Shown: positions 1 to 45,035 of the stretch, one piece after another
Layout: each line of letters opens with the position of its first letter
How positions within the stretch are numbered: position 1 is the first letter of the stretch
DNA from: Yuukianura sp. NJ FZ-2021
Lineage: Eukaryota
Direction: 5' to 3'
DNA length: 64,000 nt
Assembly: GCA_046563655.1 (NCBI GenBank)
Contig: JAJCTO010000011.1
Coordinates: 124,001 to 188,000, forward strand
Program-made: the position numbers and the translations under genes
Notes under the pieces: generated by a model
Seen by the model: only the letters and a program-made list of their open reading frames with translations
What the model was told of the DNA's origin: nothing
Databases searched by the model: none

Positions 1-3000
1 AGTGGGTTCCTGTAGCACTTTTTATGAGGATTTCAAAAATGTAATTTACTTTCTGTTCATTCTCACATTTGCATGTTCACTCCCACAAATTTAGGTCGTT
101 TTGTGTCAAAATGGTGCTCGACATTGCCCTGGGTGCCGTATTCCAACCCAAGATAAAATCCGAGGTTGAGCGTTTCATTCAGACTTTTAAGTACGCTCTA
201 ACCAGATTTAATTGCGATCTATCCACGCCAATTAAACTTGGGTTCCTGTAGTACTTTTCAGGAGGATTTCAGAAAAGTTACTCATTTTCACCCGGCATCG
301 CTCCGCGTGGAGGTTTTTCGATTGATTTGTTTTGAAACAAATTTTCATAAAAAAAGGGTCACGAGATGAGGGACGACACAGCAACTGAACGTGGGTTCCT
401 GTACCACTTTTTATGAGGATTTCAAAAATATAGTTGGCTTTTACCCAGCATCGTTCCGGAATGCATTTCTTTTGAATTTTTTTGTTTTGAAACATGAATT
501 TTCATAAATAAAGGTAACAAGATGATAGACGACACAGCAAGTGAAAGTGGGTTCCTGTAGCACTTTTTATGAGGATTTCAAAAATATAGTTGGCTTTTAC
601 CCAGCATCGTTCCGGAATGCATTTCTTTTGAATTTTTTTGTTTTGAAACATGAATTTTCATAAATAAAGGTAACAAGATGATAGACGACACAGCAAGTGA
701 AAGTGGGTTCCTGTAGCACTTTTTATGAGGATTTCAAAAATGTAATTTACTTTCTGTTCATTCTCACATTTGCTTGTTCACTCTCACAAATTTAAGTCGT
801 TTTGTGTCAAAATGGTGCTCGACATTGCCCTGGGTGCCGTATTCCAACCCGAGATAAAATCCAAGGTTGAGCGGTTCATTCAGACTTTTAAGTACGCTCT
901 AACCAGATTTAATTGCGATCTATCCACGCCAATTAAACTTGGGTTCCTGTAGTACTTTTCAGGAGGATTTCAGAAAAGTTACTCATTTTCGCCCGGCATC
1001 GCTCCGCGTGGAGGTTTTTCGATTGATTTGTTTTGAAACAAATTTTCATAAAAAAAGGGTCACGAGATGAGGGACGACACAGCAAATGAACGTGAGTTCC
1101 TATAGCACTTTTCATGAGGATTCCAAAAATATAGTTGACTTTTACCCAGCATTGTTCCGGAATGCATTTCTTTTGAATTCTTTGTTTTGAAACATGGATT
1201 TTCATAAATAAAGGTAACAAGATGATTTACGACACAGCAAGTGAAAGTGGGTTTCTGTAGCACTTTTTATGAGGATTTCAAAAATGTAATTTACTTTCTG
1301 TTCATTGTCACATTTGCATGTTCATTCTCACAAATTTAAGTCGTTTTGTGTCAAAATGGTGCTCGACATTGCCCTGGGTGCCGTATTCCAACCCGAGATA
1401 AAATCCAAGGTTGAGCGGTTCATTCAGACTTTTAAGTACGCTCTAACCAGATTTAATTGCGATCTATCCACGCCAATTAAACTTGGGTTCCTGTAGTACT
1501 TTTCAGGAGGATTTCAGAAAAGTTACTCATTTTCGCCCGGCATCGCTCCGCGTGGAGGTTTTTCGATTGATTTGTTTTGAAACAAATTTTCATAAAAAAA
1601 GGGTCACGAGATGAGGGACGACACAGCAAATGAACGTGAGTTCCTATAGCACTTTTCATGAGGATTCCAAAAATATAGTTGACTTTTACCCAGCATTGTT
1701 CCGGAATGCATTTCTTTTGAATTCTTTGTTTTGAAACATGGATTTTCATAAATAAAGGTAACAAGATGATTTACGACACAGCAAGTGAAAGTGGGTTTCT
1801 GTAGCACTTTTTATGAGGATTTCAAAAATGTAATTTACTTTCTGTTCATTGTCACATTTGCATGTTCATTCTCACAAATTTAAGTCGTTTTGCGTCAAAA
1901 TGGTGCTCGACATTGCCCTGGGTGGCGTATAGCAACCCAAGATAAAATCCGAGGCAGAGCGGTTCATTCAGACTTTTAAGTACGCTCTAACCAGATTTAA
2001 TTGCAATCTATCCACGCCAATTAAACTTGGGTTCCTGTAGTACTTTTCAGGAGGATTTCAGAAAAGTTACTCATTTTCACCCGGCATCGCTCCGCGTGGA
2101 GGTTTTTCGAATGATTTGTTTTGAAACAAATTTTCATAAAAAAAGGGTCACGAGATGAGGGACGACACAGCAACTGAACGTGGGTTCCTGTACCACTTTT
2201 TATGAGGATTTCAAAAATATAGTTGGCTTTTACCCAGCATCGTTCCGGAATGCATTTCTTTTGAATTTTTTTGTTTTGAAACATGAATTTTCATAAATAA
2301 AGGTAACAAGATGATAGACGACACAGCAAGTGAAAGTGGGTTCCTGTAGCACTTTTTATGAGGATTTCAAAAATATAGTTGGCTTTTACCCAGCATCGTT
2401 CCGGAATGCATTTCTTTTGAATTTTTTTGTTTTGAAACATGAATTTTCATAAATAAAGGTAACAAGATGATAGACGACACAGCAAGTGAAAGTGGGTTCC
2501 TGTAGCACTTTTTATGAGGATTTCAAAAATGTAATTTACTTTCTGTTCATTCTCACATTTGCTTGTTCACTCTCACAAATTTAAGTCGTTTTGTGTCAAA
2601 ATGGTGCTCGACATTGCCCTGGGTGCCGTATTCCAACCCGAGATAAAATCCAAGGTTGAGCGGTTCATTCAGACTTTTAAGTACGCTCTAACCAGATTTA
2701 ATTGCGATCTATCCACGCCAATTAAACTTGGGTTCCTGTAGTACTTTTCAGGAGGATTTCAGAAAAGTTACTCATTTTCGCCCGGCATCGCTCCGCGTGG
2801 AGGTTTTTCGATTGATTTGTTTTGAAACAAATTTTCATAAAAAAAGGGTCACGAGATGAGGGACGACACAGCAAATGAACGTGAGTTCCTATAGCACTTT
2901 TCATGAGGATTCCAAAAATATAGTTGACTTTTACCCAGCATTGTTCCGGAATGCATTTCTTTTGAATTCTTTGTTTTGAAACATGGATTTTCATAAATAA

Positions 3001-4760
3001 AGGTAACAAGATGATTTACGACACAGCAAGTGAAAGTGGGTTTCTGTAGCACTTTTTATGAGGATTTCAAAAATGTAATTTACTTTCTGTTCATTGTCAC
3101 ATTTGCATGTTCATTCTCACAAATTTAAGTCGTTTTGTGTCAAAATGGTGCTCGACATTGCCCTGGGTGCCGTATTCCAACCCGAGATAAAATCCAAGGT
3201 TGAGCGGTTCATTCAGACTTTTAAGTACGCTCTAACCAGATTTAATTGCGATCTATCCACGCCAATTAAACTTGGGTTCCTGTAGTACTTTTCAGGAGGA
3301 TTTCAGAAAAGTTACTCATTTTCGCCCGGCATCGCTCCGCGTGGAGGTTTTTCGATTGATTTGTTTTGAAACAAATTTTCATAAAAAAAGGGTCACGAGA
3401 TGAGGGACGACACAGCAAATGAACGTGAGTTCCTATAGCACTTTTCATGAGGATTCCAAAAATATAGTTGACTTTTACCCAGCATTGTTCCGGAATGCAT
3501 TTCTTTTGAATTCTTTGTTTTGAAACATGGATTTTCATAAATAAAGGTAACAAGATGATTTACGACACAGCAAGTGAAAGTGGGTTTCTGTAGCACTTTT
3601 TATGAGGATTTCAAAAATGTAATTTACTTTCTGTTCATTGTCACATTTGCATGTTCATTCTCACAAATTTAAGTCGTTTTGCGTCAAAATGGTGCTCGAC
3701 ATTGCCCTGGGTGGCGTATAGCAACCCAAGATAAAATCCGAGGCAGAGCGGTTCATTCAGACTTTTAAGTACGCTCTAACCAGATTTAATTGCAATCTAT
3801 CCACGCCAATTAAACTTGGGTTCCTGTAGTACTTTTCAGGAGGATTTCAGAAAAGTTACTCATTTTCACCCGGCATCGCTTCCGCGTGGAGGTTTTTCGA
3901 TTGATTTGTTTTGAAACAAATTTTCATAAAAAAAGGGTCACGAGATGAGGGACGACACAGCAACTGAACGTGGGTTCCTGTAGCACTTTTTATGAGGATT
4001 CCAAAAATATAGTTGACTTTTACCTAAGCATCGTTCCGGAATGCATTTCTTTTGAATTCTTTGTTTTGAAACATGGATTTTCATAAATAAAGGTAACAAG
4101 ATGATGGACGACACAGCAAGTGAAAGTGGGTTCCTGTAGCACTTTTTATGAGGATTTCAAAAGTATAGTTGACTTTTACCCAGCATCGTTCCGGAATGCA
4201 TTTCTTTTGAATTCTTTGTTTTGAAACATGGATTTTCATAAATAAAGGTAACAAGATGATGGACGACACAGCAAGTGAAAGTGGGTTCCTGTAGCACTTT
4301 TTATGAGGATTTCAAAAATGTAATTTACTTTCTGTTCATTCTCACATTTGCATGTTCAGTCTCACAAATTTAAGTCGTTTTGTATCAAAATGGTGCTCGA
4401 CATTGCCCTGGGTGCCGTATTCCAACCCGAGATAAAATCCGAAGTTGAGCGTTTCATTCAGACTTTTAAGTACGCTCTAACCAGATTTAATTGCAATCTA
4501 TCCACGCCAATTAAACTTGGGTTCCTGTAGTACTTTTCAGGAGGATTTCAGAAAAGTTACTCATTTTCACCCGGCATCGCTCCGCGTGGAGGTTTTTTTG
4601 AATGGTTTGTTTCGACACAAATTTTCATAAATAAAGGGTCACGAGATGAGGGACGACACAGCAACTGAACGTGGGTACCTGTAGTACTTTTCAGGAGGAT
4701 TTCAGAAAAGTTACTCATTTTCACCCGGCATCGCTCCGCGTGGAGGTTTTTCGATTGATT
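1..4760. repeat. Satellite DNA with higher-order structure (monomers of 153, 155/156 and 236 bp; 544- and 701-bp units; 1789-bp super-repeat)
   Basis: The anchor gggttcctgtag or a variant recurs at 4, 240, 393, 549, 705, 941, 1094, 1249 and 1485. Near-identical ORF translations recur at offsets of 544 and 1789. The array runs off the window start. Confidence 0.95.
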
Positions 4761-4942: not shown

Positions 4943-5852
4943 GGACAGTTTCGATCTCTGGGCCAAAACTGAATGCAAAAGCATTGATTTGCATTGGGCC
5001 ATGTGTAAATTAAAAATTTTGTATTTCTAAATTGCGCAATTACCACCTTCTGGGTTTTGAGTTGCACAAATTCCATTTTTCAGGTTTTTACATTGCACAT
5101 ATTCCACTTTTCGGGTTTTTACATTGCACCATGTACCACATTTCGGGTTGTTATATTGCACAAGTACCACTTTTAGGTTTTTTAAGCTGCACACTTAAAC
5201 TTTTGGTTGACGGACTGAACAATTCGCAGGTTTCCAGTTTTGGACATTGCACAATTTCAAATTTTTGAATTTGTGCACTGCAAACTTTAAACCTTTTCTA
5301 TTTTTAACACGAATCGTCCCTCCTTTTCGGTTATCGGCATGATGCACCTGCATACTTTTGCGTTTTTATATTGTATAAAGTGCAATGTTTTTAGTTTCTG
5401 ATGTTGCACAATTTCAAATTATTTAGTTTTAAGAGATGCACAATTGACCGGTTTTCAGTTTTTATGCTGCACAGATTCCACATTTCGGTTTTTCTCCTGC
5501 ACAAATAACACTTTTTGGTCTTTCTCCTGCACAAATTCCACTTTTCGGTTTTGCGTGCTGTACAATTCCAAACTTTGGCGACTTCAGTTTGTTATTTCAA
5601 CATAAAATATACAAAGCAACAAACGTTGACTAGGCATTTCTTAAGATTTTTAGCGAAAGTGCAACTTTTGCGGTGAAAGTGCCAAGAGGCAATGGCCAAA
5701 TTCATATACAAGGACTCCTGGCCACATCACGAAATTTCGGCCCTTACTTGCTAAGGCCATGGTTGATCTACTGTGAAATTTTTGTGATGTGGCCAGTAGT
5801 CCTTCCCCAGATTCGTGGGGGCCCAATTTACCCGCAATAATCGAAAACGTCC
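4943..5852 (-). mobile_element. Non-autonomous Spy-like (PHIS) DNA transposon with an internal ~30-bp minisatellite
   Basis: Termini are ggacagtttcgat / atcgaaaacgtcc, flanked by AAA (4940-42) and TTT (5853-55). Region 5593-5852 is a diverged reverse complement of ~13093-13360. Satellite sequence (ttttcataaaaaaagggtcacgag) resumes immediately after 5852. Confidence 0.75.
5030..5570. repeat. Degenerate ~30-bp tandem repeat (tgcacaaattccacttttcggtttt-like)
   Basis: The tgcaca...ttcca...tttt motif recurs about every 30 bp. Confidence 0.75.
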
Positions 5853-10605: not shown

Positions 10606-13564
10606 CTCCTACAGCCACTAGCACTCAGCATCCTGCAATCAATCACAAATTCAATCTTCTAACTCAATTAATCCCTAATTTCACTTCTCAACTTCTCCAT
10701 CGCTGAAGACTTTCTCCTTCAATTCATTCCTGCCACTCACTCTGTATAACAAAATCACATTATCCATTCCTTCCTCTTACTTCGACGCTTATTTCGCTCA
10801 ACACAACTTTTCCTTAATTTCACGTCAGTAAGACTTTTCGTTACGACAGAAGAAAAAATCTAGAATTTTAAAGGTGTGTTATCAAGCGCGCGATTTCAAT
10901 TTTGAAAAGACGTCAAGCGTCTGATTCTGATTGAACGCTAGAAATCGAGCTTTGGCAGGAAGCACAACAGATCCACTGGAATTGAAACTGCGACTCAAAT
11001 GTAAGCCATTGTGCCTGCCTCTCCAAATGACACGATCACTCTCCCGGATCCAATCTCCATCAACATTTCAAACTTTCCCGCTTTCTCTTCCACTCCTCCA
11101 AAAGACATTCCTGACAACTCAAATTATTTAGAAGACGAGGAGTGGTGACACGAACCCACTGTCCTTTTAGGAAGTTACACAAAAGACATGCGACTAATTC
11201 GCACTGAATTAGTAATGGACTCACAATTAGTCCACACGCAATCCAACCTGCTTTCTCCGGCCGTCGCCTTTTCTCCAAAAGTTTAACCTCTATCACCAAA
11301 GTCTCTAATGCCCTCAATTTCCTGATTCTAAACCCAAATCAACTCAGGCGACTGCGCAATGTTTAAGATTAGCAAATCTCACATCCGATTCAGGTTCAGC
11401 GCAAGCATCGACTTTGATGAAATTCAACGCGTGCGTCTGCACTCTACCCAAACCGAAATCACTTAATCCTCTTTCTTGTACAAAACTTAAAAAACTTTGA
11501 GGCTTTTGTACTATGAGTTCTCAAAGGACAAGAAAAGGGCGGCCTAATCCCTTAATTACGTGCTCTCTTGTTCAAAGGACGTTTTTCAATTTACTCTGTT
11601 CATCCAAGTGCTCTTCAAATTCACTTTCATGTGAACAAAGTTGCTGGAGCTGGAGGAGAAAGCACAATGTTACGCAGCAGTTCTTTGCTTTCCTCGAATC
11701 CAATTTCTCCGACAACCCAGGGTTTACAGGGAATTCTTCTACGCAAAATCAAGTGTTTCTCACCACCACTTATGAGCAGAATCAGATGGAATTAGCATTC
11801 ACCACAAATTAGTATAACTGTTGAATCTCAGTAGGAGACAGACACTGGACGAACTGACAGAAAAACTACTTGTGCTGAAAACATAAGATGTGAATTGAGG
11901 AGTGTAGAAGTGGGAGGAAGCCTCAAACACCTAAATACTAAGACTGAGATATTTTAAATATAAATGTAGTTTTGCCAAATGCAGCGGAGCCAAGAAACGG
12001 ATGATCCCAGTATCTGTATCCCACAGGACTAAAGATCACAGAACCCTATCAAAAGTATTGAGATGTCTCTGGAGAGTAGCAGCTATTTATGGCTTCACCC
12101 ACAAACACGATCTGCACAACCCAATTCAGCACTCCTAACACATTTAACACATTTCCAGTTTCTCATTTCAACTTTGTTCATGCCACAAACTCATCATTCA
12201 ACGAACCATATTTCAAACTTTAAAAATATATAATAAAAAATAGTAAAATATTAATAAATTAGTGACGAAAAAAAAACGGCAACAGTTCAGTTCACAGAAG
12301 AAAAAAAAAACGAATTACTCATAAGAAGATTTGGTGCCTCGAAGTTATAGCTAAATTGCCAAGTCTCCGACGCATCTTTCACTGTCCACGAAAATCCAAG
12401 GTGACGAAAAACGGATCATTGACAACTAAAAGGATTTTAAAAGAAGCTGACGTGTGGGTCGTTGGATGAAGGTTAGGCTGTGTTAAAGGATAACAGCAGA
12501 GGAAAGTTTCCAAGTGAGCAGTCAGCACAAAAATTGGTTGATTTGCAAAAATAAAATGTTGATGGGAATGAATTAGTTTAAAGGCGAATGAGTGCCATGG
12601 TCTCTGCGTTTCCAAATCCCGCAAAGCCCCGCGGATGAGCTAAGCATCCAACCAAATCCCAATTCTCCTTCCACTACTACCGTATTTCCTTCCTAATAAT
12701 GCGCACAGTATCCTAGAAGAGTTTACCAATTTTAGAAAAACAATGTTTCGCCTGAAAACCGAATTATTTTGTTAATCAATCATACGCATGAATTATTTGA
12801 AAACGTCATAAACTTCTCTAAACTGTTTTAATCTATTATCAATTCATCAAATCCGTCAAATAAATCAAAAATCTAAACCAAATTGAAGGCAGATTTCGCT
12901 TAATGAAATTCCATCATTTGCTAGCAGGAGATTTGGTTACCACATTCATTTGTCAATGCTTTCAGGTGGGGTGGGTCTAAAAATTCCGAAAATTGACAGT
13001 CGAGTGCTACGGAATTGGTTCAGAATTTTAAATCAAGTGAATTGCTAATGGTTTCACAAGCGAACGTAAGTTTAAAAAGAAAGTTTAATAAAGGACGCTT
13101 TCGATTATTGGCGCGAACTGGGCCCACAAAAATCTGGAGAAGGACTACTTACAACATAACAAAATTTTCACAGTAGATAAATGATAGGCTTAACGGTTAA
13201 GGGCCAAAATTTCGTGATGTTGTAACGAGTCCTTGCATTTGAAATTTCTCGAAAGGGACATTAGCTTTTGGCACTTTTTTCTTAAAAAGCTCGACTTTCT
13301 CTAAAAATCCTGAAATAATGCCGTGGCAACAATTGTCGCTTTGTATGTTTATGTTGAAATAAATACGAACAATTATGAATTACTGTATTCAAATCAAAGG
13401 TTTCGTATTTTCGTTAATGCTACTCGGGATTTTCAATTTATTACTTTTGATTTGTTCATTTAAATTGGTTTAATAGTTTTTCATATTATTAATTACATTT
13501 CAGCTCTAGATTAGTTTTGTTCAGTAATCTAATTAGCTCACAGTTTTAACGTTAAAGTTTAAAG

Positions 13565-16500
13565 ATGGGAAAGTGGAAGTGTAACTGCAGATGCGGTTGT
13601 TCTCGCTGGAATGCTTCCAATACTCGAGCCTACTACGTTGACGGGAGGTGTCGTAGTATTTGCGGAAAATGTTTTGCTGCTGTGAGGAATGCGTCGGGAC
13701 TTATTAAAAACCCGAGAATTCAACAAAAAGGTATGAAAATATATGATATGACACTTCAACTAATCGAATGATGTAAGCTAACCAGTTTTAACAGCTTTTT
13801 TGGTCACTTTCTAAACGGGTCACGCCCAATTTTATTCAATTTTTTTTCTTTTTCAGAGTTGAACGGTGACGACTCGGGAAATGTACCTAGGCTTCCATTG
13901 GCTCCTTCTCATGGAATGAACTTGAACGGTGACGACTCGGCTTCTGTACCACGGCTCCCATTGGCTCCTTCTCATGGCTTGAAAACGAACGTTGACGACC
14001 TGGCTTCTGTACCACGGCTCCCATTGGCTCCTTCTCATGGACTGAACTTGAACGGTGACGACTCGGCTTCTGTACCACGGCTTCCATCGGCTTCCTCTTC
14101 TGGCTTGAAAACGAACGTTGACGACCTGGCTTCTGTACCACGGCTCCCATTGGCTCCTTCTCATGGACTGAACTTGAACGGTGACGACTCGGCTTCTGTA
14201 CCACGGCTTCCATCGGCTTCCTCTTCTGGCTTGAACACGAACGGTGACGACTTGGCTTCTGTTCCCCGGCTTCCATCGGCTTCTTCTCATGGACTGAACT
14301 TGAACGGTGACGACTCGGCATCTGTACCACGGCTCCCATTGGCTTCTTTTACCATTGACGACCTGACCTTTTTGGCTCAATTACGTACTCTCGGGCTTAC
14401 ATTCCGTTCAATGCTTGGTGATGGGTAATGAACAAATCTAAATAAAAATCTAACCATACTGTATGCATCTTCTCGTTTCTAGAAATTGCTTGTTCAGAAG
14501 TTTGTCAGATCAATTCGACGGTAGCGACATCCACCATTCGAAACATCGCGAAGCCGTGGTCAACTTTATGCTCCAAAATCGTCGTGACTTCGAAGATTTC
14601 CTTGAAGAAGAATACGATTTTGATGAATACCGTAATTGCTTCAGCTTTATTATACAGTTTTGTGCTTTATTAGTTTGTGGTAACGTTTAATGCTCTGTAT
14701 CCTAGTGCAAGAACTCTCGAAACTCGGTACTTATGCTGGAAACGACGCAATTGCCGCATTCTGTAGATTGAACAATGTCATGGTTGTCGTTCACCAACTC
14801 GATAGAACTCCGCTGAAGCTCAGTACTAACGCAGAAAATTCAACTCCAAACCGCGAATTGCATATCTCCTACCACAATGGTGAGTATATAATTCAAATCC
14901 AACAAACATATTACCAGGAGACAACCAACCATAAATTACATTAACGTTTTCTCCCCAGGAAATCACTACAACAGCGTTCGCCAAATTGGTGACGTCTCCT
15001 TTCTGCCACAGAGTTTCAGAATGTTCACGTTTCAGCAACACGAATCGGCCTTAGAGCACGAGCCATCAATAGAAGTAGATTCTTCCGAAGACTGCTTAAT
15101 TGATGCTGAAGACGTTGAGAATTCATCTCAGCATTCTATTTCCGCCGCTGTGTCTATATGTGACTTCTCAATGCAACTTTCAGTTCGACACGAAGCGAAG
15201 ATCCGGCTTCCTGATTTATCCACGTGCCGTTCGACTCAAAAACGTTGCTTCTTGTGTGGTGATCGAAACGGGAGAGGCCGAGTACCTAAGATGGCAATTG
15301 ATGACGCCTGGAGAAGAAAGAAAATTGTCATTCCAGTCAATAATCGCTGCTGCAAGTCCCACCTCCGGTACTCCAGGCTAACTGAAGATGCGCTAGAGCT
15401 TTTACGTCCAATCAAACCATTTCTGGATACTACACCTGAAGCCGCATCTCGCTGGATCTACGGCTTGACAAGTTATTTGCCATCCACAAACCTTCGCGTG
15501 GATTTCGCAATCGACTCGGACTTATCAGATGATGACTACTACCTCCTGCTTGGCGTGTCTCGAGAAGACTTTCAAGAATTGATGTCTTTCAGTCATGGCT
15601 TGCGGTCCAGCCGAAATCGTACGAGACGAAATGCCGTAGCAATGCTGTTGATGAAGCTTCGTCTGAACCTGAGCCTCAACTTTCTGGGATTCCTCTTCGG
15701 GATAAAAAGCAAATCCGTCGTCAGCGACATCATCAAGGCAGCGTCTACAACACTGGAGGAAAACTTCGTTCCACGATATCTGGGATACCAACACAAGTCC
15801 AGAGAAGAAATTCTTTCGCAGCACACGGTGAAATCATTTCAAAGACTACTCCAACATGACGAAGATGTATTGGTGGTGGTCATGGATGGAACGTACTTTT
15901 ACGTCCAACGACCTGCGGACCACAAAGATCAGAGGATGCTGTACTCCTTGCAGAAGCTTCGTCACTTGGTGAAGTTTATGACGGTTGTGACCAGTACTGG
16001 CTACATAATTGAATGCGAGGGGCCATTTGGAGCGGACAACGGGAACAATGACTCCACAATTCTCAAGGCCATGATGAAGAGCGAGGATTCGTCAATTCTG
16101 CAGTTGTTCGAGATCGGGGACGTGGCCGTACTGGATCGTGGCTTCCGCGATGTTGTGGATGAACTGGAGGACCATCAGGTCTGGAGTTACTTGCCAGCAT
16201 TCCTACCTCGGGACAGAAAGAAGTTTTCGACTGAAGAGGGAAATAAGTCAAGACAGGTGACAATGCTGCGTTGGGTCGTGGAAGCCGTCCATGGGAAAAT
16301 CAAGAACAAGAGCCATCTTCTGGATTCAGTGATTTCAAACTCCCTTCTTCCAAAAATCCGAACGTTTGTCAGAATCCAGTGCGCTTTGATCAACGCTTTT
16401 TCGCCGCCAGTTTTTGAGAGTTCGGAGGACCACAATGGACTGGTGGACGCGGCACTGAAGTTACTGCACGGTCAGAACGCCCTGGAAGCGGAAGTGACAT

Positions 16501-16991
16501 CGAAACGACTTGCAACTAAAAGAATCATTTGGAAATTGGCTTCTCCTTCTGACGTGCCTGAGTTTCCCGTGTTGACCCCGAACCAACTTAAGTTGTTGAC
16601 ACTTGGAACATACCAGCTCCAGCAGGCAAGTCGCTACACGCGGGAACATGTTCGAGAAGATGGATCCTACAAGTTTTTCATCCACGTGGAAGAAGCTACT
16701 CTTCTATGCGCGAAAATTGAATCCAGGCACTGCAAACGCCAGGCACACAATGTCTTCCTGAGGTACATCCCACATGGAGACACACCGGAGTCAATTACAG
16801 GATGGTTTTGTACTTGCAAGGCTGGGTCGAGAACGTTGGGATGCTGTAGCCACATTGCTTCAGTAATTTGGTTTCTGTCATTTGCACGCCATCATCCGGA
16901 AGCTGTACCGAAGAGGAGGTCACTTAGCTCCTTTATACTTGATGCTGCCCAAGAATTGGAGCAGTCGGAACAAGATGAAGATTCCGAATAG
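13565..16991 (+). CDS. OTU deubiquitinase-DDE transposase-SWIM fusion protein, 1029 aa; predicted exons 13565-13730, 13857-14424, 14483-14631, 14706-14879, 14959-16991
   Basis: All four introns are GT-AG with matching phases, and the joined length is 3090 nt. Splicing rebuilds GDGNCLFRSLSDQ, GTYAGNDAIAAF and ELHISYHNGNHYNSVR (OTUD3-like). This continues in frame into the DDE_Tnp_4-type core (VMDGTY, VLDRGF, RWVVEAVHG; DD48E) and the C-terminal SWIM-like FCTCKAG..GCCSH. Confidence 0.88.
13857..14345 (+). repeat. Coding 63-bp tandem repeat, 8 copies (21-aa LNLNGDDSASVPRLPLAPSHG-type)
   Basis: ttgaacggtgacgactcg occurs at 13859, 13922 and 14048. There are eight VPRLP cores with partly alternating A/B variants. 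Confidence 0.92.
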
Positions 16992-17331
16992 CGTATACTT
17001 ATTTTGAGTATCCACTTAGCTTGTGTACAAAACCTTGAAATCTAATCTAAAATCTCCATTTCTACATTTTTCTTGAATAAACCCGTATATCTGAAGAAAG
17101 ATTGAACTACATCGCTTTTTTAATACAATGACTTTTAAATAATTAATCATGTTATCAATTAATTTACTTTAATATAATTATTGAGGCGTAGTATAATTAC
17201 TAACTTCATCCGAGAAAAATATTCTACCTTCGATTTAGAAAAAAACATTCAAAACGTAAAAAATTAATAATTATTTCTGCATAAAAATAAAGTACATAAT
17301 AAATACTAATTAAAACGTACGTATAATCATG

Positions 17332-17436
17332 AAAAAAAAAATGCCGGACCCCGGGGTAGGGGTCCGGGGTGGGCCTCGATCCTCCGCCCCGTGAAAGGGA
17401 GCACGAGCACTCCAGCATCCCGCTGGGAGACCCACC
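17332..17436 (-). ncRNA. Putative structured small RNA module inside the transposon 3' region
   Basis: GC-rich island in AT-rich DNA. On the minus strand, ggtgggtctc pairs with gaggcccacc (one G.U). There is an inner hairpin ccagc/gctgg and a B-box-like ggatcgaggcc, then a perfect 9-bp hairpin ccggacccc/ggggtccgg followed by T10. Confidence 0.4.
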
Positions 17437-20400
17437 AATTAAAATGTGATGTCAAAATCTTCATGCTACTCGAGTAGATTAGGATTTTTGGTCAGCTTAT
17501 TAGGGACTCTTATCAAATTATTTTTACTTTAATAAAAACGGATTATTTAAAAATTCATCGCTGTCGCAACGTTGGAAATGTGAAACAAACAATAATTAAT
17601 GTCAACAATTGCTCGGGGGCCCAGGCGATTATGTAGAAAGTATATGAATGGGGGCCCAAAAACGCGCACTAATCGTACCCCTTCTTTAACCGTTAAAAAA
17701 AAGGAAAAAGTTGAAATTGCATTTAAAAAATTGCATTCTTAACATGAACTTTAGCTATTCGCATTTAAGGAGTGATTTCATATTGATGGGAGGAGATTGC
17801 ATATTTTACGAGTATATGCGTTCAGCATAGGCGAGGAAATACGGTAATAATCTCCTTAAAACCACTTTTCCTCTTTTCGCATTATTTTGCACGATTGCAG
17901 AAAGGAAGGTGGGGAGGCAGGGCGAGGTCGTTCACACTTTGCCAACAAAGTCTTTGCTAAAAACCAAGGTCCAGCAACACAAACTTTGGCGCAAGGGATA
18001 ACACTAATCGAGTCTAACTTAAACCCTGGACTTCTCTCTGTCAAACTCTACAAAATTCAAATCAAACACTTTGCCTAGTTCAGCAGAACAAAAACGAAAA
18101 GAGATAAAAACACTCGACCTAATTGATCCAAACATCCTCCTCCATCCAGCAGAATCCTTTCAAAAGTTCCAAGTCAAAAGATTTTTCCAAAGATACAAAT
18201 CAAGAGCATAAACCAATCTTAGCTTGTCTTTGCAAAAATGTTTCAAATTGGCAACGGCCGTGTCAAATTCCTTGAGATCATCTGAGCAGAACTTTTCTCA
18301 ATTTTGCCAAAAAAAAAAGACGAGGAGGAAGGTTGGCTCCTGCGAGGCCACTGTGCAACGAATTTATGGGTTTGGGAAAATCATTTAGCAGAGAGGAAGA
18401 TGTCAAATATAAACGGAATTCGCCAATTCCTTGATCGCAAAATTCCCATCATTCCAATTTCCTTCCACATTCGAACTCTGTGTTTCCCATACCAACTTCC
18501 TCCTTAAACCCAATCAAAAATTCCATCCTCGACTTGAGCAAAGAGGCGCCAAATTCAAAGAAATTAGATTCCGCTGGAAATTGAGAACGGCACGATTCGT
18601 TTTTCTACATGAGCATTATGCTCAGGCGCAAGGCTCTCTAACGTGCCCTGAAATCCCAAGTGACTTCAAAAACCATCAAAAATTGCTCATCTCATCCTAC
18701 TGCCGAAAAATTTTCAAAAAAAAAATTCTGCCTGATTTTTCAGTTTGAAGTGACATTTCCTAGGATGACTGACTTTTCAAAGCACACAATGTACAGTAGT
18801 CCAGTTAAGTACTTGGTTGTTATTGCAAAAAATGAGACACGGAGATGTCCGATTCCTTGACACGGGAAGACAAATACTAAAAAGCTTTTTACCTGTTTCT
18901 ATGCTATTTTCTTTTCATTTAAAGACGTGGACTTGTGGTGGGATAGTGCGGTGTGACAATGAAGTGAGGGACTTAAGGCGTGAAAGTGGCAGTTGACAAA
19001 TGCTGCTCAGAGTCAACAAGAGCGTCTTCGTAAATGAACTTTCACTTGGAGGTGTTTCCTCCGAGGACTACAATTGGAGAATGATAAATTGGATGCTAGG
19101 CACGCCGGACGAAGCCTTCGGTTTCCTTTCACCAAGTCGCTTCGTGACCTCTCACGCCAAATGTCAAAAGTCAACTGACGAATAGCAAAAGTCCGAAATA
19201 TCGAAAATTTGCGACACCAAAAAGCGACTTCCTGTAGAAGCAGAGGGTGGACAGTTTGGAGCAGACTAAACTAGAAACTAATCGTAGCGAATTCAACCTC
19301 TCGAACAAAGTAATCCGACAGAACTGCCTCACTTCCGCTGATTCCCACTCATTCAGAGTGCAGCGAAAGTGGAAAGGAGGTGACCTTGGCTCGAATCTTT
19401 GTCCTCACAATCACAATCACAAAACAGCCAAATTACTGCAAATCACATTAAGTGGTACACTGTGATGTGTTTTGACTATAGAACATGTGGCAAATCAAAG
19501 ACACATACAGATTATGTAGGATTATGATTACAACTCTGTAATTCTTCCACTCACCTCCAAAAATGACTTTACCAAAGTAATCTCAAATTTGTCATCGAAT
19601 TCACTGAAACTGCAATTTGCACTGGACATGCGCAGAAACCAGTCAAGACTCTTCTACAACCAGAGTATTTGTAGTAGCAAATTGACGGAAAATGAATGAT
19701 GAAGTTGAGCGACACTTACTACACCACTACAAATGGTTCACTGCCAAGTTCATAACTGAGGACGTGGAATGGCCAATTGTGCCGCTAGTACAAGATAGTG
19801 TTCTTGATCTCCCTCACCGTCCTGTTCCTCCTCCTCATCGCAAAACCATTGTTCTTATTCTGACAAGCATGCACTACCTTCAAATGAAGTTGGCAAAACA
19901 ATGGAGCCCTTCCAGGAAGAACGCAAACAATAACATCACCAGCTCAACCCCCACAGTTCACTAACACCGCTAACATTCTTCCTCAACCTCAAAACCTTAC
20001 CAACACTTTCTTAAACGACTGATTTCCCTTTTAAAAAGAATCTTTAACAATCAAGCTCCGAATAACTTGTGAACCTGAACAGTATTCAACAAAATCAACA
20101 ACTCTTGACTTTTGTTTGGGAGTGTTAAGCAGGCAGATTGGCTGGATTGGGCTCATGCTCTTGCCATGTTAAATTACTTCACACATGGATGCTAAATCTA
20201 TAGCAGATACTTTTTAATCTCCTCGTCGAAATCAAATGGAAAACTTAACGTAGCTTCCATGTCATAAGGGAGATTCGAGAGAAGATGGACAAAGTATCCC
20301 AATACTCATGTGACGAAGAAGCAGAAAGTGTTGTAGTAAGTACAAGGTCACTCCGACCACAAATCGCAAAAACTGAATGTTCCCACGAATCCAATACACA

Positions 20401-26006: not shown

Positions 26007-28109
26007 ATGTCGGACAGTGACGATAACTTGCCCAGGAAGAAGCTCAAATTGGACCCAAATACACCCGACGATGACGGTGCACTGGACTTGGAAGATTCAC
26101 AGCCCAAACTCGGATTCAAACCACGTAAGTAAACCCAACTGATGTCCTTGTAAATTACTTAGACGTAAACATTGAATCAAGAAAGACCAAAAGGAATGGG
26201 CTTTACTGATTCTATTGTTTGATATAGCAGTATCGTTGTGTAGGTAAGGGTGGATGTCTTACCGGCGCATTATAACGAAAATTCGGTTTGATACTTTCGT
26301 CCTGTCTTGGATTTGAACATATGACTTAAAAATACATTCGGAATTGATAAGACGATTATGTACATTTACAGGTCAATGCCCCTACTTGGATACGATTGAC
26401 AGAAGCGTACTGGATTTTGACTTTGAGAAGCTATGCTCTGTCTCCCTTTCTCGGATCAACGTTTACGCTTGCCTTGTTTGTGGCAAGTACTTCCAGGGCC
26501 GGGGAATTTCGACGCATGCCCACACACATAGCGTAGCGGATTTTCATCATGTCTATCTTAATTTGCACACTCTCAGATTCTACTGTTTACCAGATAACTA
26601 CGAGATCATAGGTATAAGATAAGATGGGTTGGGGCACACTTTAACTCAACCTATTACCAGAAGAACGAATTTATTTTAATCTACGCTATTTTTACACCGA
26701 TTTAGACTCCTCGTTGGATGACATTAAATACGTCGTTAATCCAATTTTTACTAAGAACTACATCAGTGCGTTGGATTCAACGGCGAAGGTAAGCATCAAC
26801 GGATTACCCTAGAATTGCTCTTAACTAACTGTTGATTCGTATGCTGAATTGAATCTCTGAATTTTTAGGAATCACGGGCAATTGATGGATCCATGTATTT
26901 GCCTGGTGTGGTCGGTCTGAACAACATAAAGGCCAACGATTATTGCAACGTTATTCTCCAGGCCTTGTGTCACGTGAAACCACTTAGGGACTATTTTCTC
27001 AGAGAGGAGAGTTACTCTGGTGTCAAGCGACCTCCGGGAGAAAATAGGTAGGTCACAACTCACAACATTACAGTTCATAAAGTTTATTGATTTTAGAGTA
27101 TCCACTGATTCGAAAAAGTACTGCGTTTGTGGTACTGCGGCTAATATTGACCATATGATCTTCTTAGCTTCCTTCTTGTTCAGCGTTTCGGTGAGTTGAT
27201 GCGAAAGCTATGGAATCCTCGGAACTTCAAAGTTCACGTGAGTCCACATGAAATGCTGCAAGCAGTGGTACTTTGCTCCAAGAAGCAATTCCAAATTACA
27301 GCCCAAGGAGACCCAATCACATTCCTCAGCTGGCTTCTCAACGCACTTCACAAGGCTCTCAATGGGAGCAAGTACGTTTAATTCATCAGCCATTCTCGCA
27401 CTTTCCATTGTAAAGTTTACTCAAAGGTTTACACTACTTTCTTAGAAACCCAAGGAGCAGCATTATCTACAAGACATTTTTGGGCAAAATGAAAGTGTTT
27501 ACACGGCGAATTGAAAAGGACAAGGCAGAGGAGGAGGAGCAAGTGGAAGAAACGTCTTTTCTGTATTTAACATGCGACCTTCCCCCAACTCCGCTTTTCA
27601 AGAACGAAATGATGGAGAACATCATCCCACAGGTTAGCTAATCGTTAGTTATCTAATTCCACTTACTTTCTTTAAACGTTTTTGTTTGACTTCAGGTAAA
27701 CCTGTACACTCTCCTCGGAAAATTCAACGGAAATGAGGCAAAGGAGTACAACACTTACAAGGAAAACTTTTTGAAGCGTTTCCAAGTGACATCCCTTCCT
27801 CCGTTCCTCATCCTGTACATCCGTCGCTTCACGAAGAATACGTTCTTCATTGAGAAGAATCCCACCATCGTCAACTTCCCAGTGCTCTCCGTGGACTTTG
27901 GAGAAGCTTTCGGACTTCCGTCTGCGCCCTACGACCTCATCGCCAATGTCGTCCATGAGGGGCAGCCCAAGCGAGGGACTTGGCGCATGCAGATGTATCA
28001 TCATGCCAATTCTACTTGGTACGAACTGCAGGATTTGCATGTCAAAGAAATCCTGCCTCAGATGCTAACCCTCACCGAACCCTATATTCAGATCTATCAG
28101 AGAAAATAA
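26007..28109 (+). CDS. USP39: U4/U6.U5 tri-snRNP-associated protein 2 (USP39/SAD1), multi-exon
   Basis: CPYLDTIDRSVLDFDFEKLCSVSLSRINVYACLVCGKYFQGRG (ZnF-UBP), YLPGVVGLNNIKANDYCNVILQAL, KLWNPRNFKVHVSPHEMLQAV, FTKNTFFIEKNPTIVNFP and WYELQDLHV..ILPQM. aataaa follows the stop. Confidence 0.95.
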
Positions 28110-29019: not shown

Positions 29020-31579
29020 ATGGAAACCAATGATGGTTCTGGTGGTCATGGATTCCAAGTACCAAGTTCCGTAAGTTTAAAGGTTCTGCTGATCTTTATT
29101 TGAACGAATATTGGATTTACTACATAATCGTGCACTTATGTATAAACAAAAGGATACAACACAGTGGACCGAGGAGGTGGAAGAGGATGCCGTATGGGGC
29201 GTGTATTTGAAAAAGATTCGCTACCAGAGGCCTTCTGTCTTAGTCCAAGTGGTTACCAACTATCCGTCCTCGTCATCTTCCGGGCCAAGCCACAGTCAGT
29301 CGTTAGGACGCTCAAGCGGAATTACCTCCTGCACCACCTCTTCGTCCGACGTCGTCATTGATGAAGTGGACTCGGACCAAGGAGAAATTGCTCATTTGAT
29401 GTGGGAAACTGTTCGTGTGCGAGTGCTCAGAGCCGGAACCCTTCGACGAATAGTTGAAGCCATGTCGAACGACGACAGCGATGTCCAGGTGAGGGAAAGT
29501 AACTGAAGTTGTGTATACAGTCACAGGAAGTTATTCTACTGAGAAAAAAATAAACTGTTTTTGAGTAGGCGACGCATCTGAGCGTGTTCTTAGCTACGTA
29601 TCGTGCCTTTGCAACTCCGACTGAAGTACTACAAGAAATCATCTACCTCTACAAGCACTCAAGTCAAGACTCACTACGAAAGTAAGTCAAATTAATTAAG
29701 GTAGTTGAGCCTAATTAGCCGATGTTTGTTCTTTGTTATAAAGAAGCATTGACCTTACTCGGAATATTTCAAAATAATAGGGTGATGCTGGACTGTCTCA
29801 ATGCATGGCTCGACTCTTATTCTGAAGATTTCGAATCCGGAGGGGATGGTTACCACTGTTTACGTAAAGTCATCCTGCCATTTGCACAAGATCAAGGACT
29901 CACTTCTCTGGCACTAAAAATTCAATATAAACTGAGATCACGGCGCAAGATGAGGAAGTCTAGCAGCCTGCACTCTCTACGCACTTTCTCGCCGCAGAAC
30001 ATTCGAACGTACTCACTCTTGGCCATACCGGAATCACATTTTGCACAACAGCTCACCATACTATGATAAGGTGACACATTTTGAAGCAAAACGTTCCATA
30101 TAGACAAATTGTCTTAACACAAGTCCATGTTTTTTAGGAACTATTTCTTAATTTGCGTGTTTGGGAATGTTTGGGAGGCTTGTGGAAGCGAAGGTGCGGA
30201 TGTGCTTCTGTAGCGGCAACAGTTGAGCAGTTCAATGCACTTTCAGGACGTGTTGTGGCCACGATTCTGGTTGATCCGACGTTACCTCTGCAACAAAGGG
30301 CGAAAATACTCGAGAAATGGATTCGAATTGCTCAGGTGGGATTTCGGGAAAACACTGCTTTTTTTCTTGTAGTTGTTGGGCAGGAATGAGGTTAAATTGC
30401 ATTGTTACAGGAATTACGGCAGCTCAAGAATTTTTCGTCGTTGAAAGCCATCATTGCAGGGTTGGAGTCAAACCCAATCTTTCGCCTCTCCAAGCTCTGG
30501 CATCTCGTCTCCAAGGACCGCCTGACCATTTACTCACAATTATCCCAAATCTTCTCCGAAGACAACAACCGAATGGCACAACGGAGTCTTCTGGAAGCCG
30601 AGGGAACAGCCAAATTCCCTACGCCCACCAAGAGTCCAAAGGACAGAAGATTCCTATCAAGGGTTCTACGCTCAAGTCATGGCACGAGAGGCACGACGGC
30701 AGAATTCGACTCTCCGAATGGGACGATTCCTTATCTTGGTACATTCCTCACTGATTTGACATTCATTGACGCTGCATACCCAGACTACGTACACGGAACA
30801 CTCATCAACTTTGACAAACGAAAAAAGGAATTTGAAGTCTTAGCTCAGCTGAAGCTCCTACAAGGATCTGCCAAAGGATATCGCCTAGAAGAGGATCCGT
30901 ACTTCACGTCGTGGTACAACTCTTTAACAGTGTTGGATGACAAGGCTGCTTACGACTTGTCGGTCGCAATTCAAACTGAACGGGTTCCGCCTAAAGGACA
31001 TCGCAAGAGCGACTCTTTTGCTTCAAACTCATCGTCGGAAAATACGGAGAGCGTTTTGGGAATTCCCCCCACTCGAAAGGTAATTTGTAATTTGAAAGCC
31101 AATTATTATTATTTGTGATTGTATTTATGTTCTATTAGGGTTCAATCCAGAGTTCAAACGAAAGTTCCACGGGTTACTCAGAGGCCCCACCAGTCGTACC
31201 CGGACTCACTTCCCCCACGCCGGAAACATCAGTCGTTGTGAAAGTTTCATCACCAGCCAAATCAGATGTAATGTACAAATCTATGATTGTCAGTAATTCG
31301 GACCACACGCCGCAAGTGATAGCCCAAGCGCTGGAAAAGTTGGGTTTCGAAGGAGAGGAACCTCGTCGCTTCTCACTCGTCCAAGTTCTCGCTAATAAAG
31401 AACTTAAGTTCCCCGCAAACGCAAACGTTTTCTACGCCCTGGACAACTCGGGAGTTCCTGGAAGCGTTCGATTGGAGTTGAGGCCAACAACGAACCACAC
31501 GTCTGGACGCAACCTTCGCGTGAGCCCCAAACCACACCCGTTGTCCCTCTCATCCGTGAGTCTCAACAACAATCAATAA
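29020..31579 (+). CDS. Ral guanine nucleotide dissociation stimulator-like (RalGDS/RGL) protein: RasGEF_N, RasGEF and RA domains
   Basis: [108 protein letters not shown], and C-terminal MYKSMIVSNSDHTPQVI..ANVFYAL. The start codon is tentative. Confidence 0.9.
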
Positions 31580-43392: not shown

Positions 43393-45035
43393 CAGAGGCT
43401 TTTTTAAGTACTGCCTATTGTCTCAAGAATGTTGAGTGTGACGCTTCTGGGTTTTATCAAACTCAACTCCTCTCCCGCGAGTTTTGCGCGAAAACAAAGC
43501 ATAACAAAACGAAAGGATTTAAATTTCAGTAGAAAAAATATTTTTGAGCATGAAGTTTATTTTTAGAGATTTTATTTTTAAAGTGTTCAAAATGTCCGCC
43601 TTCTGCAGCTACGCAGTACCACATACGGTCAGCAAACGATCTTCGCATGTTCTTCAGGATTTCCGAGTGAACTGAATTTCTGCAAAAGTGTTCAATCCTT
43701 ACTTTCAAATTTTCATTTGTTTCTTGCCTTGGTGGAAGATAGATTTCACTCCGCATAAATCCCCAAAAAAATAGTCCAGCGGTGCGAAGTCTGGAGAGCG
43801 TGCTGGCCATGGAATGTCGCCTCCTCTTCCGATAACGCGCCCAGGAAATTCTTCTGCCAGCCAATCTCTGACTTTTAGCGAAAAGTGTGGCGGTGCACCA
43901 TCGTGCTGAAAATACGCTTGATCCCATTCAATTTGCTGATTCGCTGCAGAGTATTTCGCTTCATAGTAGAGCCAGTCCTTTAGCATTTTCAGATATGCAT
44001 CGCCAGTTATGTTTCCGTCAAAAAAATAAGGTCCAAGTATTTCGTTCGAAAGAATCCCCACACCGACGTTTATTTTTGGCGACCCACGAGTTTTCTCCCC
44101 TTCGTACCAATTCGGATTTTCTTTAGACCAAAAACGAAAATTTTGTCGGTTAAACTCGTCGTTCAGGAAAAAGGTGGCTTCATCCCAAAAGATGGTAGAC
44201 ATAATCAATTTGTCGTTCTCTTCCATTCTAGGTATCATTTCTTCCGCAAAATCCAGTCTCTTGTTCTCATCTCCCTTCAAAAGTTTTTGCAAGCGGCGAA
44301 TTTTGAAGGGCTTGAGACGTTGTTGTTTAAAAATTTTGTAGATTGATGACGCTGACACGCCAGCATCAAAGGCTCGTTTCTTCAGTGACATATGAGGGTT
44401 CACGTTGACGGATGCTAACACTGAAGCAGTCATTCCCTCCGACGTTACACTTTTCGGCCGCCCAGGTTTTTTCACGTCTAACAGAGTAAACGTCGTTTCT
44501 AATTTTTCAATGATTCTCTTCACGCTTTTGGGATGTGACATTGGATGAGTCACTGACGTGTCGAGAGCGTTGTACATGTCCATGATTTCCAGGTCGGTTT
44601 TTCCAGGATTTGCGTAGCGTAGCTTGATCACAGAAAGCCGTTGTTCAGGGGAAAAATTCATTTTCTAAAATAATTTAAATCATTCTAAACCATTTATCTA
44701 AAAATTTCTACCCGAAATTCGTATTTCTTTCCTTATTGCCAAAGTTACGCTTACCAGGGGTGCTAACAAGATGCTTTCCGTCCCTCACAACTTCGAATTG
44801 GTTGACAACGCAGATGTAATTAGTAGTAATTAAGATTTAAACAATCACAAGTTAAGTTTCAACTGATAGTTTTAAAACTTTGCTTTTCTGCTTAATTTGG
44901 GATCTGTCACAGTTGGTTAGCAAAGAACCGCGCAATTTGTGGAGGGAAAAGAGAAGTTGAGTTTTCTCCCAAAAGGTGGCTAGCTTACCTTAGCGCTATA
45001 GGCATGACCTTGGGACAGTACTTAAAAAGCCTCTG
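43393..45035 (-). mobile_element. Tc1/mariner DD41D (rosa/Visitor-type) transposon; transposase 44661-43526 with one homopolymer frameshift
   Basis: TA TSDs, TIRs cagaggcttttttaagtactg / cagtacttaaaaagcctctg, and motifs FWDEATF, QHDGAPPH and WPARSPDFAPLD with 41 residues between D2 and D3. The frame break is in the A7 run at 43765-71. Confidence 0.92.

Follow-up and report, generated by a model that had tools for sequence, protein, structure and literature searches.

The DNA studied here (the window) is a stretch of 64,000 nucleotides from Yuukianura sp. NJ FZ-2021, positions 124,001 to 188,000 of contig JAJCTO010000011.1 in assembly GCA_046563655.1. On its plus strand, at 13565-16991, lies a gene of five exons in which an OTU domain of the OTUD3 type, intact in appearance, is joined in frame to a DDE_Tnp_4 transposase. 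Both parts stand within one mobile unit of 4592 bp (13093-17684, plus strand), a Spy-type cut-and-paste transposon copy delimited by empty-site joints and by a second copy. This arrangement was confirmed in the present analysis.

The exons cover 13565-13730, 13857-14424, 14483-14631, 14706-14879 and 14959-16991. They are separated by introns of 126 nt (13731-13856), 58 nt (14425-14482), 74 nt (14632-14705) and 79 nt (14880-14958), every one with GT..AG ends and a pyrimidine tract. The intron phases 1, 2, 1 and 1 follow from exon lengths that add up to 166, 734, 883 and 1057 nt. The joined coding sequence of 3090 nt encodes 1029 residues plus a stop codon and contains no internal stop. An earlier note, made from the letters of the window alone, had linked five pieces through four GT-AG introns of the same phases into a stop-free protein of 1029 residues, and this model was reproduced exactly.

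The predicted protein consists, in order, of a Cys-rich N-terminus, about eight repeats of 21 residues, the OTUD3-like OTU domain, a C2CH finger, the HTH_Tnp_4 motif, the DDE_Tnp_4 core and a SWIM-like finger. Exon 1 provides the start codon and the Cys-rich module (residues 1-55). The repeats are encoded at 13859-14348 in exon 2, where Tandem Repeats Finder detected 7.8 copies of a 63-nt unit, in agreement with the eight repeats counted earlier. The OTU domain starts in the same exon, from about 14363, and the catalytic Asp244 is found at 14420-14422, near the exon end. Intron 2 then splits the catalytic Cys motif between GDG and NC, the catalytic Cys247 being encoded at 14487-14489 in exon 3. 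Exon 4 encodes the central part of the domain. Exon 5 is a single open frame: it carries the last part of the OTU domain (to about 15023, His355 being encoded at 14964-14966), followed by a linker and by the complete transposase with its stop codon. A possible polyadenylation signal, AATAAA, lies at 17076-17081 on the plus strand, 85 nt past the stop and within the element, and could serve this gene.

With exon 3 alone, Pfam matched OTU at 23.3 bits, which equals the cutoff. Among the sequences of solved structures, the OTU domain of human OTUD3 (4BOU) was matched by exon 3 (E 3.5e-11, chain residues 26-73) and also, collinearly, by exon 4 (E 1.5e-8, chain residues 78-129), and OTUD5 came as a distant second for these exons (E of at least 0.068). 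The spliced domain (residues 225-374) is 51-52% identical to its best matches among OTUD3-like proteins, which include one crab OTUD3 and two unnamed proteins (the two best E values are 2e-47 and 6e-46). No alignment gap occurs at any of the three splice junctions in these comparisons, and introns 2 to 4 are supported by homology for that reason. Conservation was assessed on 60 OTUD3-like proteins covering the whole domain, out of 80 blastp matches. Of 32 columns conserved at 90% or more, the window protein keeps 28, including D244, C247 and H355; in the four others the substitution is conservative (A to S, P to D, D to E and I to V). The earlier note had recognised the GDGNC and HYNS catalytic motifs as rebuilt across splice junctions, and the three kept residues, together with the gap-free junctions, bear this out. 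By sequence, the domain is thus placed in the OTUD3 subfamily of OTU cysteine proteases, and catalytic activity is held to be somewhat more probable than inactivity.

The closest named relatives of the domain, each an OTUD3 protein with 38-52% identity, come from crabs, krill, snails, an annelid, a flatworm, a tunicate, a nemertean, a priapulid and vertebrates. In a quick tree of 61 sequences, a check proposed in the earlier note, the domain fell into no named animal group; crab and krill OTUD3 were nearest by distance, but a source group could not be placed. The earlier statement that the segment closely follows host OTUD3 holds as to type, OTUD3 being the nearest one, but the identity is only about 50%, and it is to the OTUD3 of many animals. 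No near-identical source for the captured domain was found among the OTUD3 relatives compared. A word-based search with exon 4 returned three candidates, none of which was scored. Compared with host OTUD3 (4BOU), the OTU domain is collinear and has the same catalytic Asp, Cys and His. In contrast to host OTUD3, it is embedded in a transposase and lies on a long branch, and nothing of OTUD3 is kept past about residue 374, where longer alignments enter low-complexity sequence.

The transposase part begins slightly downstream of the OTU end: homology to transposase relatives starts at residues 385-430 of the spliced protein. Pfam recognised DDE_Tnp_4 (1.2e-14) and HTH_Tnp_4 (3.7e-8) in exon 5. 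All on the plus strand, a C2CH zinc finger (C449, C452, C484 and H487) is encoded at 15246-15362, the HTH_Tnp_4 DNA-binding motif, a helix-turn-helix (HTH), at 15630-15767, the DDE_Tnp_4 catalytic core at 15882-16394, with D662, D745 and E794, and a SWIM-like CxCx9CxH finger (C970, C972, C982 and H984) at 16791-16868. An alignment of the window protein with 18 relatives (19 sequences) has 63 near-invariant columns, and the window protein departs from none of them; the DDE triad and both fingers are among these columns. All 19/19 sequences have the triad, and the core can be written D(82)D(48)E. In the C2CH finger, 19/19 aligned sequences agree in H487 and in two of the three Cys, and 18/19 in C452. 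The 48 residues between D745 and E794 and the C449/C452/C484/H487 finger are those that the earlier note had described as DD48E and as a CxxC..CCxxH segment. As to the C-terminal SWIM finger of that note, its four ligands are invariant in 19/19 sequences, but the Pfam SWIM match (PF04434) stays below the cutoff (15.9 versus 19.6 bits). Although a C2CH finger is present, Pfam THAP gave no match at E<=1. A search of 5.8 billion proteins returned 40 relatives of the transposase, the best at 48% identity and most of them 470-790 residues long; those with names come from springtails (Folsomia, Orchesella), ants, wasps, beetles and rotifers.

Short-read contigs from three runs (X1, X2 and X3) of one sample were compared with 11000-20000 of the window. 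Two of them, of 1299 nt (14319-15617) and 696 nt (14508-15203), run from the OTU exons into the transposase part with 0 differences each. The join between OTU and transposase is therefore not an assembly chimera. In X3, whose library type is not on record and whose cover is patchy, one contig lacks 13731-13856 and another lacks 14880-14958, so that introns 1 and 4 are cleanly absent; the GT..AG ends, corrected by shifts of 2 and 1, fall exactly at the predicted sites. The same two introns are retained in contigs of X1 and X2, which are deeper runs of the same sample. If X3 contains cDNA, these contigs are direct evidence for two of the four introns and connect exon 4 of the OTU part with exon 5. 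Should X3 be DNA instead, there is an intron-less copy, which would itself stem from a past spliced RNA.

Two observations on the contigs concern the repeat array. One X3 contig carries sequence resembling the 63-nt repeats (14214-14331) directly before 13613, going back by 719, and then continues across the intron-1 joint; this is unexplained and could be another copy of different layout or an assembly artefact. Contigs of X1 skip 186-249 nt inside the 63-nt array (13862-14112), so copies or alleles may differ in their number of repeats, or short-read assembly may have collapsed the array.

The borders of the element were fixed from empty-site joints and from the second copy, because the alignment score of the terminal inverted repeats (TIRs) was not significant. 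One X1 contig joins 13092 straight to 17685, with the joint AAA|TTT. A second passes from 13087 to 17685 through 5 other letters ending in AAA, so that the joint is again AAA|TTT, and a third passes from 13064 to 17691 with 19 other letters between. These X1 contigs are copies of the flanking repeat without the 4592 bp. The left target half, AAA, is at 13090-13092 and the right one, TTT, at 17685-17687, without target-site duplication; X3 contigs from elsewhere match through 17687 and then diverge. The left TIR (13093-13130, plus strand) starts with GGACGC; it was aligned to the right end as well as to the two ends of the second copy. The right TIR (17647-17684, minus strand) is degenerate in its outermost 9 nt and matches well further inwards. 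An ungapped inverted-repeat search found no TIR around the gene. The ends at 13093 and 17684 enclose the whole gene, which answers the concern, raised in the earlier note, that the OTU exons might lie outside the TIR-bounded unit.

The second copy (4943-5852, minus strand) is a non-autonomous one of 910 bp; it lacks a transposase and has GGAC termini between AAA and TTT flanks. Read on the minus strand, its positions 5852-5592 match the left 270 bp of the element (13093-13362) from the very first base, at 75% identity. Short tandem repeats of roughly 30-40 bp take up its interior. When the termini of the two copies are read inwards, all four are flanked by AAA, three start with GGAC and one with GAAG. 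Other copies were seen in the sample. A contig that passes from 13307 to 17613 (depth 151 in X3) lacks the interior but retains the left end and some of the right-end region, which fits an internally deleted derivative. Contigs about 86-88% identical to 13215-13730, 15632-16106 and 16130-16933 show that at least one further diverged copy of the coding element exists, the OTU region being outside the matched stretches.

The element is itself nested in another repeat (12806-13092 and 17685-17922), and several contigs carry this repeat without the insertion. Relative to the gene interior, contig depth is 3-7x at 12806-13092 and 17685-17922, and about 7x at 12806-13106. One empty-site contig has a depth of 114.6, which, added to the 58-85 of filled contigs, comes close to the 135-208 of flanking single contigs; an allelic empty site for this insertion is possible. 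The 3' non-coding part of the element contains a GC-rich stretch and a short palindrome (17320-17440), and Rfam gave no match on 12000-19000.

The label "PIF/Harbinger-type" given in the earlier note stands at the level of the superfamily, through the DDE_Tnp_4 core, and can be refined. Spy elements, as described by Han et al. 2014 (PMC4122938), insert between AAA and TTT without target duplication, as proven there by paralogous empty sites. In these elements a single long open reading frame (ORF) encodes the transposase, whose core is D(79-80)D(44-62)E and whose HTH is N-terminal; the TIRs are variable and have a terminal 5'-GGANNNNG-3', a motif described as only "relatively well conserved". 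Zinc fingers are absent from most Spy transposases in that description. The 2024 account of cgSpy (PMC11304231) gives Spy transposases of about 700 residues in arthropods, molluscs and cnidarians, and reports transposition of cgSpy in human cells. In our element, the joint 13092/17685 reads AAA|TTT in the same kind of empty-site test as that of PMC4122938. It is this insertion between AAA and TTT without target duplication that assigns the element to the Spy group. The core is D(82)D(48)E, HTH_Tnp_4 is present, and there is a single gene, with four introns and the OTU extension in addition to what the published description gives.

Likeness to Spy, as described in PMC4122938 and PMC11304231, thus extends to the AAA|TTT target without duplication, the GGA-type start of three of the four termini, the N-terminal HTH, a similar DDE spacing, the single transposase gene, the invertebrate hosts, the existence of non-autonomous derivatives and the size of a few kb. 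In contrast to those accounts of Spy, the element has an OTU domain, 21-residue repeats, four introns, a protein of 1029 residues instead of about 700, C2CH and SWIM-like fingers and a D-D spacing of 82. Two other groups were considered and do not fit. ISL2EU, which the PHIS survey defines by the duplication of an AT target (A|AT|T), the presence of a THAP domain and a YqaJ exonuclease encoded in a second ORF, does not apply, as there is no AT duplication, no Pfam THAP match and no second long ORF within 13093-17684. PIF/Harbinger proper, defined there by a 3-bp TWA target duplication and a second Myb/SANT ORF, does not apply either: no 3-bp duplication is found at the ends and there is no second ORF, the DDE_Tnp_4 core being common at superfamily level only.

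How the OTU domain came into this gene could be approached from its introns. HMMER with exon 3 over 1.84 billion representatives gave 286 matches at E<=0.001. None of the best 150 of these 286 bears a transposase, and none of them aligns with the window protein beyond residue 452. Among these 150 are 47 short ORF fragments (135 residues or less), which were taken as frames of animal genomic DNA. In 27 of the 47, homology starts exactly at the Asn that follows intron 2, and in 27/27 of these the preceding residue is R or S, as an AG + N codon predicts. Homology stops exactly at the residue before intron 3 in 19 of the 47, and in 19/19 of these G, S or R comes next, as an N + GT codon predicts. 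Twelve fragments (12/47) have both the intron-2 start and the intron-3 end, and the window presents the same pattern at both places. By this comparison of frames, introns 2 and 3 are taken to be OTUD3's own intron positions, two positions thus being common to the element and to host OTUD3. Because two introns sit where animal OTUD3 genes have introns, the OTU domain was captured as genomic DNA and not as a processed RNA copy. The earlier note had proposed intron positions as the means to tell DNA from RNA capture, and the outcome is DNA.

The first exon has another origin, to judge from a relative. A scan of metagenome contigs yielded 80 related transposase loci (215,623 bases). In one of them, L009, whose transposase is 43% identical, a frame that opens with Met precedes the transposase frame by about 800 nt; strand and frame are the same for both. 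The first 48 residues of that frame are 37% identical to exon 1 (E 0.004 in 215 kb), and in the reciprocal search the best match of the L009 N-terminal module in the window is exon 1 (E 1.2e-4). The alignment spans the opening residues, a common CGKC motif and then a basic stretch. The two frames of L009 are separated by a stop, and a good acceptor precedes the second one, which suggests that an intron lies there. Exon 1 is therefore probably the transposase's own first exon. If this is accepted, the match of exon 1 to the L009 module places the OTU exons between a native first exon and the native main exon. The fusion, described in the earlier note as in frame with the transposase, is indeed so, but the OTU domain is not simply attached at one end; it lies between the probable first exon and the main exon.

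Taken together, we read the locus as a Spy-group (PHIS) cut-and-paste transposon copy whose five-exon transposase gene took in a piece of host OTUD3 as genomic DNA, and we give this reading a probability of about 0.7. A stretch of host OTUD3, with its own introns, would have landed between the first exon and the main exon of the transposase. Splicing would then yield one protein of 1029 residues with a complete OTU domain in its N-terminal half. The zinc fingers and the HTH would bind the element ends, and the DDE core would excise the element and insert it between AAA and TTT. The OTU domain, tethered by the repeat-rich linker, could remove ubiquitin in cis, most likely from the transposase itself or from proteins present where the element is excised or inserted. 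The outcome might be a slower ubiquitin-dependent loss of transposase, or a tuned repair response. The suggestion of the earlier note, protection of the element from ubiquitin or an action on ubiquitin of chromatin, is likewise speculative. The analysis shows the anatomy, the borders and target site of the element, its family relations, the conserved catalytic residues and the source of the introns; the enzyme activity, its substrate and the benefit to the element are what we infer, and any particular substrate deserves much less confidence than the activity does.

Several points weigh against this reading. Some concern the element as a mobile unit. Only 4/9 of the outermost right-terminal bases match the left end, and the sequenced copy, its right terminus being degenerate, may no longer move. 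A gapped local alignment of the two ends scores 23, against 18.9 +/- 2.7 in shuffles, which is not significant. Only one full-length copy was seen. Others concern the classification: the element was filed as Spy-type by its target site and termini and not by a tree of the DDE core, and it departs from published Spy elements (PMC4122938) in a D-D spacing of 82 versus 79-80, in an eighth terminal base that is T and not G in 4/4 termini (the start GGAC being found in 3/4), and in at least two conserved zinc fingers, where Spy transposases are mostly described as having none. As to the gene, removal of introns 2 and 3 was not seen in any contig of X1 to X3, the library type of X3 being unrecorded. 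The claim that exon 1 is native rests on one relative, L009, and a hidden Markov model built from the N-terminal fingers of 16 distant insect relatives misses exon 1 among 1236 ORFs of the window (2.5 bits overall, best domain E 0.76). The OTU branch in the tree is long, 1.50 versus a median of 0.48.

The fusion was also found in no relative examined, and this too counts against the reading, as it may be a one-off event without benefit. A precomputed OTU domain is present in 0/40 of the transposase protein relatives. A tblastn search with residues 1-440 of the window protein and four OTUD3 proteins found an OTU domain in 0/80 of the related metagenome loci, of which 20/80 have at least 540 nt upstream of the equivalent of the exon-5 start, room for the OTU exons as arranged here. 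Pfam found no OTU domain in seven of the longest relatives or in L009. As far as these collections show, the OTU-transposase fusion is lineage-specific. The search for further copies of the same architecture, proposed in the earlier note, brought out at least one diverged coding copy in the contigs of the sample, but none bearing an OTU domain among the metagenome loci.

A more far-reaching version of our reading can be entertained tentatively, although we doubt it. A recently active Spy would have taken OTUD3 exons into its own first intron, and would so have gained a self-deubiquitinating transposase that escapes ubiquitin restriction or clears ubiquitin at excision or insertion sites. The empty-site contig, whose depth is near that of a single copy, could then be the other allele, the insertion would be polymorphic in the sample, and the element would be the first of the PHIS superfamily with an enzyme that removes ubiquitin.

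Other explanations were weighed. It could be, although we think it unlikely, that the gene has been domesticated: it would no longer belong to a transposon but to the host, with a DNA-binding and nuclease module of transposase origin beside an OTUD3 paralogue, and its removal of ubiquitin would be aimed at DNA sites which the former transposase binds. SETMAR, a fusion of SET and mariner, is a model for such a chimera. The frame is fully intact although family copies differ by 12-25%, and the invariants of both OTU and transposase are kept, as selection predicts; yet all DDE catalytic residues are kept as well, which domestication does not need. The degenerate right terminus and the lack of the fusion in all relatives examined would also suit a host gene. 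This gene, however, lies within recognisable termini and AAA/TTT flanks, nested in a repeat that contigs of the same sample carry without the insertion, related non-autonomous copies exist, and no orthologue is known.

We consider it quite unlikely that the OTU part is a passenger, that is, a transduplicated piece of OTUD3 in the 5' part of the element whose continuity of frame has no function, the working transposase starting at an internal Met of exon 5 (e.g. M373, M424 or M464). Pack-MULEs are the model here, as carriers of transduplicated gene fragments. Relatives function without an OTU domain, Spy transposases of about 700 residues (as given in PMC11304231) are near the size of exon 5 alone (676 residues), and the OTU branch is long; a functionless piece is nevertheless difficult to reconcile with the 28 of 32 conserved OTU columns that are kept, catalytic triad included. 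The four intron phases are compatible; the OTU His motif and the transposase stand in one open exon, and the linker between them, about 70 codons, is free of stops. A probable native first exon lies upstream of the OTU exons, and the joints of exons 1 and 2 and of exons 4 and 5 both occur in contigs of X3 (library type unrecorded). Finally, an assembly or gene-model artefact, in which OTU exons and transposase are not truly adjacent or the introns are imaginary, would be favoured by the lack of RNA data of known type, but is close to refuted by the short-read contigs with 0 differences across 14319-15617 and 14508-15203, by the conserved OTUD3 motifs that splice junctions rebuild without gaps, and by the two introns precisely removed in X3 contigs.

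The reading of a Spy element with a captured OTUD3 piece has precedents in other mobile elements. Ginger1 transposons carry a C-terminal OTU or Ulp1 protease, for which Bao et al. 2010 (PMC2836005) propose a role of the ubiquitin pathway in transposition. The same paper mentions OTU or Ulp1 proteases in Helitron (OTU) and Mutator (Ulp1, KI-MULE) proteins, in line with the earlier note, which had named captures in these three types of element, and an IS5-like transposase of Trichomonas fused to a ubiquitin hydrolase of the peptidase C19 family. Like Ginger1 as described there, our element combines a cut-and-paste DDE transposase and an OTU domain in one polypeptide, and its gene contains introns. 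Ginger1, in contrast, is of an unrelated superfamily with a Gypsy-integrase-like DDE core, has its OTU at the C-terminus and makes target duplications, whereas the OTU domain here is N-terminal or internal and clearly of the OTUD3 subfamily. The Helitron, Mutator and Trichomonas cases are alike in being mobile elements with a ubiquitin or SUMO protease, and the last one also in its transposase_11/IS5-type core, from the wider clan that includes DDE_Tnp_4. They differ by having other protease families (Ulp1, USP) or another enzyme (Rep/helicase in Helitron), and none of them, as they are presented in that paper, is an animal Spy/PHIS element with an OTUD3-type OTU.

A full-text literature search, with Repbase and Dfam outside its scope, found no described OTU fusion in Harbinger, ISL2EU, Spy or PHIS elements, nor any of OTUD3 with a transposase; the earlier note, too, had known of none in the first three. 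The words "OTU" and "SWIM" are absent from all the main texts searched (the PHIS survey and the Spy papers), and neither Spy paper (PMC4122938, PMC11304231) contains the phrase "OTU domain". Protease-carrying transposases are thus known, and an OTU domain in Spy/PHIS is new as far as searched. Zisupton/KDZ elements were also named in the earlier note among those that capture proteases. With Ginger1, Helitron and Mutator, several unrelated superfamilies have thus each acquired a ubiquitin or SUMO protease on their own, and we know of no function shown for any such capture.

If the reading is true, this is a further independent acquisition of a protease, now in the Spy group. The locus also illustrates a route to such fusions, in which a stretch of host gene with its introns comes to lie inside a transposase gene and is read through by splicing. 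As cgSpy works in human cells (PMC11304231), a tractable system would be at hand, in which the half-life and the transposition rate of a transposase with its OTU domain could be compared with those of one without it or with the Cys mutated. If the transposase does remove ubiquitin from itself, the element would be a natural experiment on whether cut-and-paste transposition in animals is held back by ubiquitin.

Among the 80 metagenome loci, Spy-type ends were sought in 219 pairs tested. One pair was obtained, in L005, and was set aside as uninformative, because the inverted repeat continues through the supposed AAA flank. L005 (1-2908) is a contig in which a related transposase (37% identity) stands between the arms of a perfect inverted repeat. 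Each arm is at least 86 nt long, and the repeat may reach the contig ends; L005 is probably a long-TIR relative.

The rest of the window contains other features. A separate DDE_Tnp_4 fragment is found at 48297-48803 on the plus strand (Pfam 9.9e-13). The spliced window protein gave no tblastn match there at E<=0.001, and the fragment is thus attributed to another PIF/Harbinger-like family. On the minus strand, 43708-44664 holds an open frame of 319 residues that looks by eye like a Tc1/mariner-type transposase, with no Pfam match at E<=0.001. Host-gene exons lie on the plus strand at 27690-28106 and 30396-31576; they include one with a ubiquitin carboxyl-terminal hydrolase (UCH/USP) domain (2.4e-16) and a RalGDS-type gene with RasGEF (6.3e-29) and RA (7.4e-12). 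Shorter arrays of a 155-156-nt unit occur near the window start (326-4331), and a 155-nt satellite of 52 copies occupies 55839-64000, to the window end.

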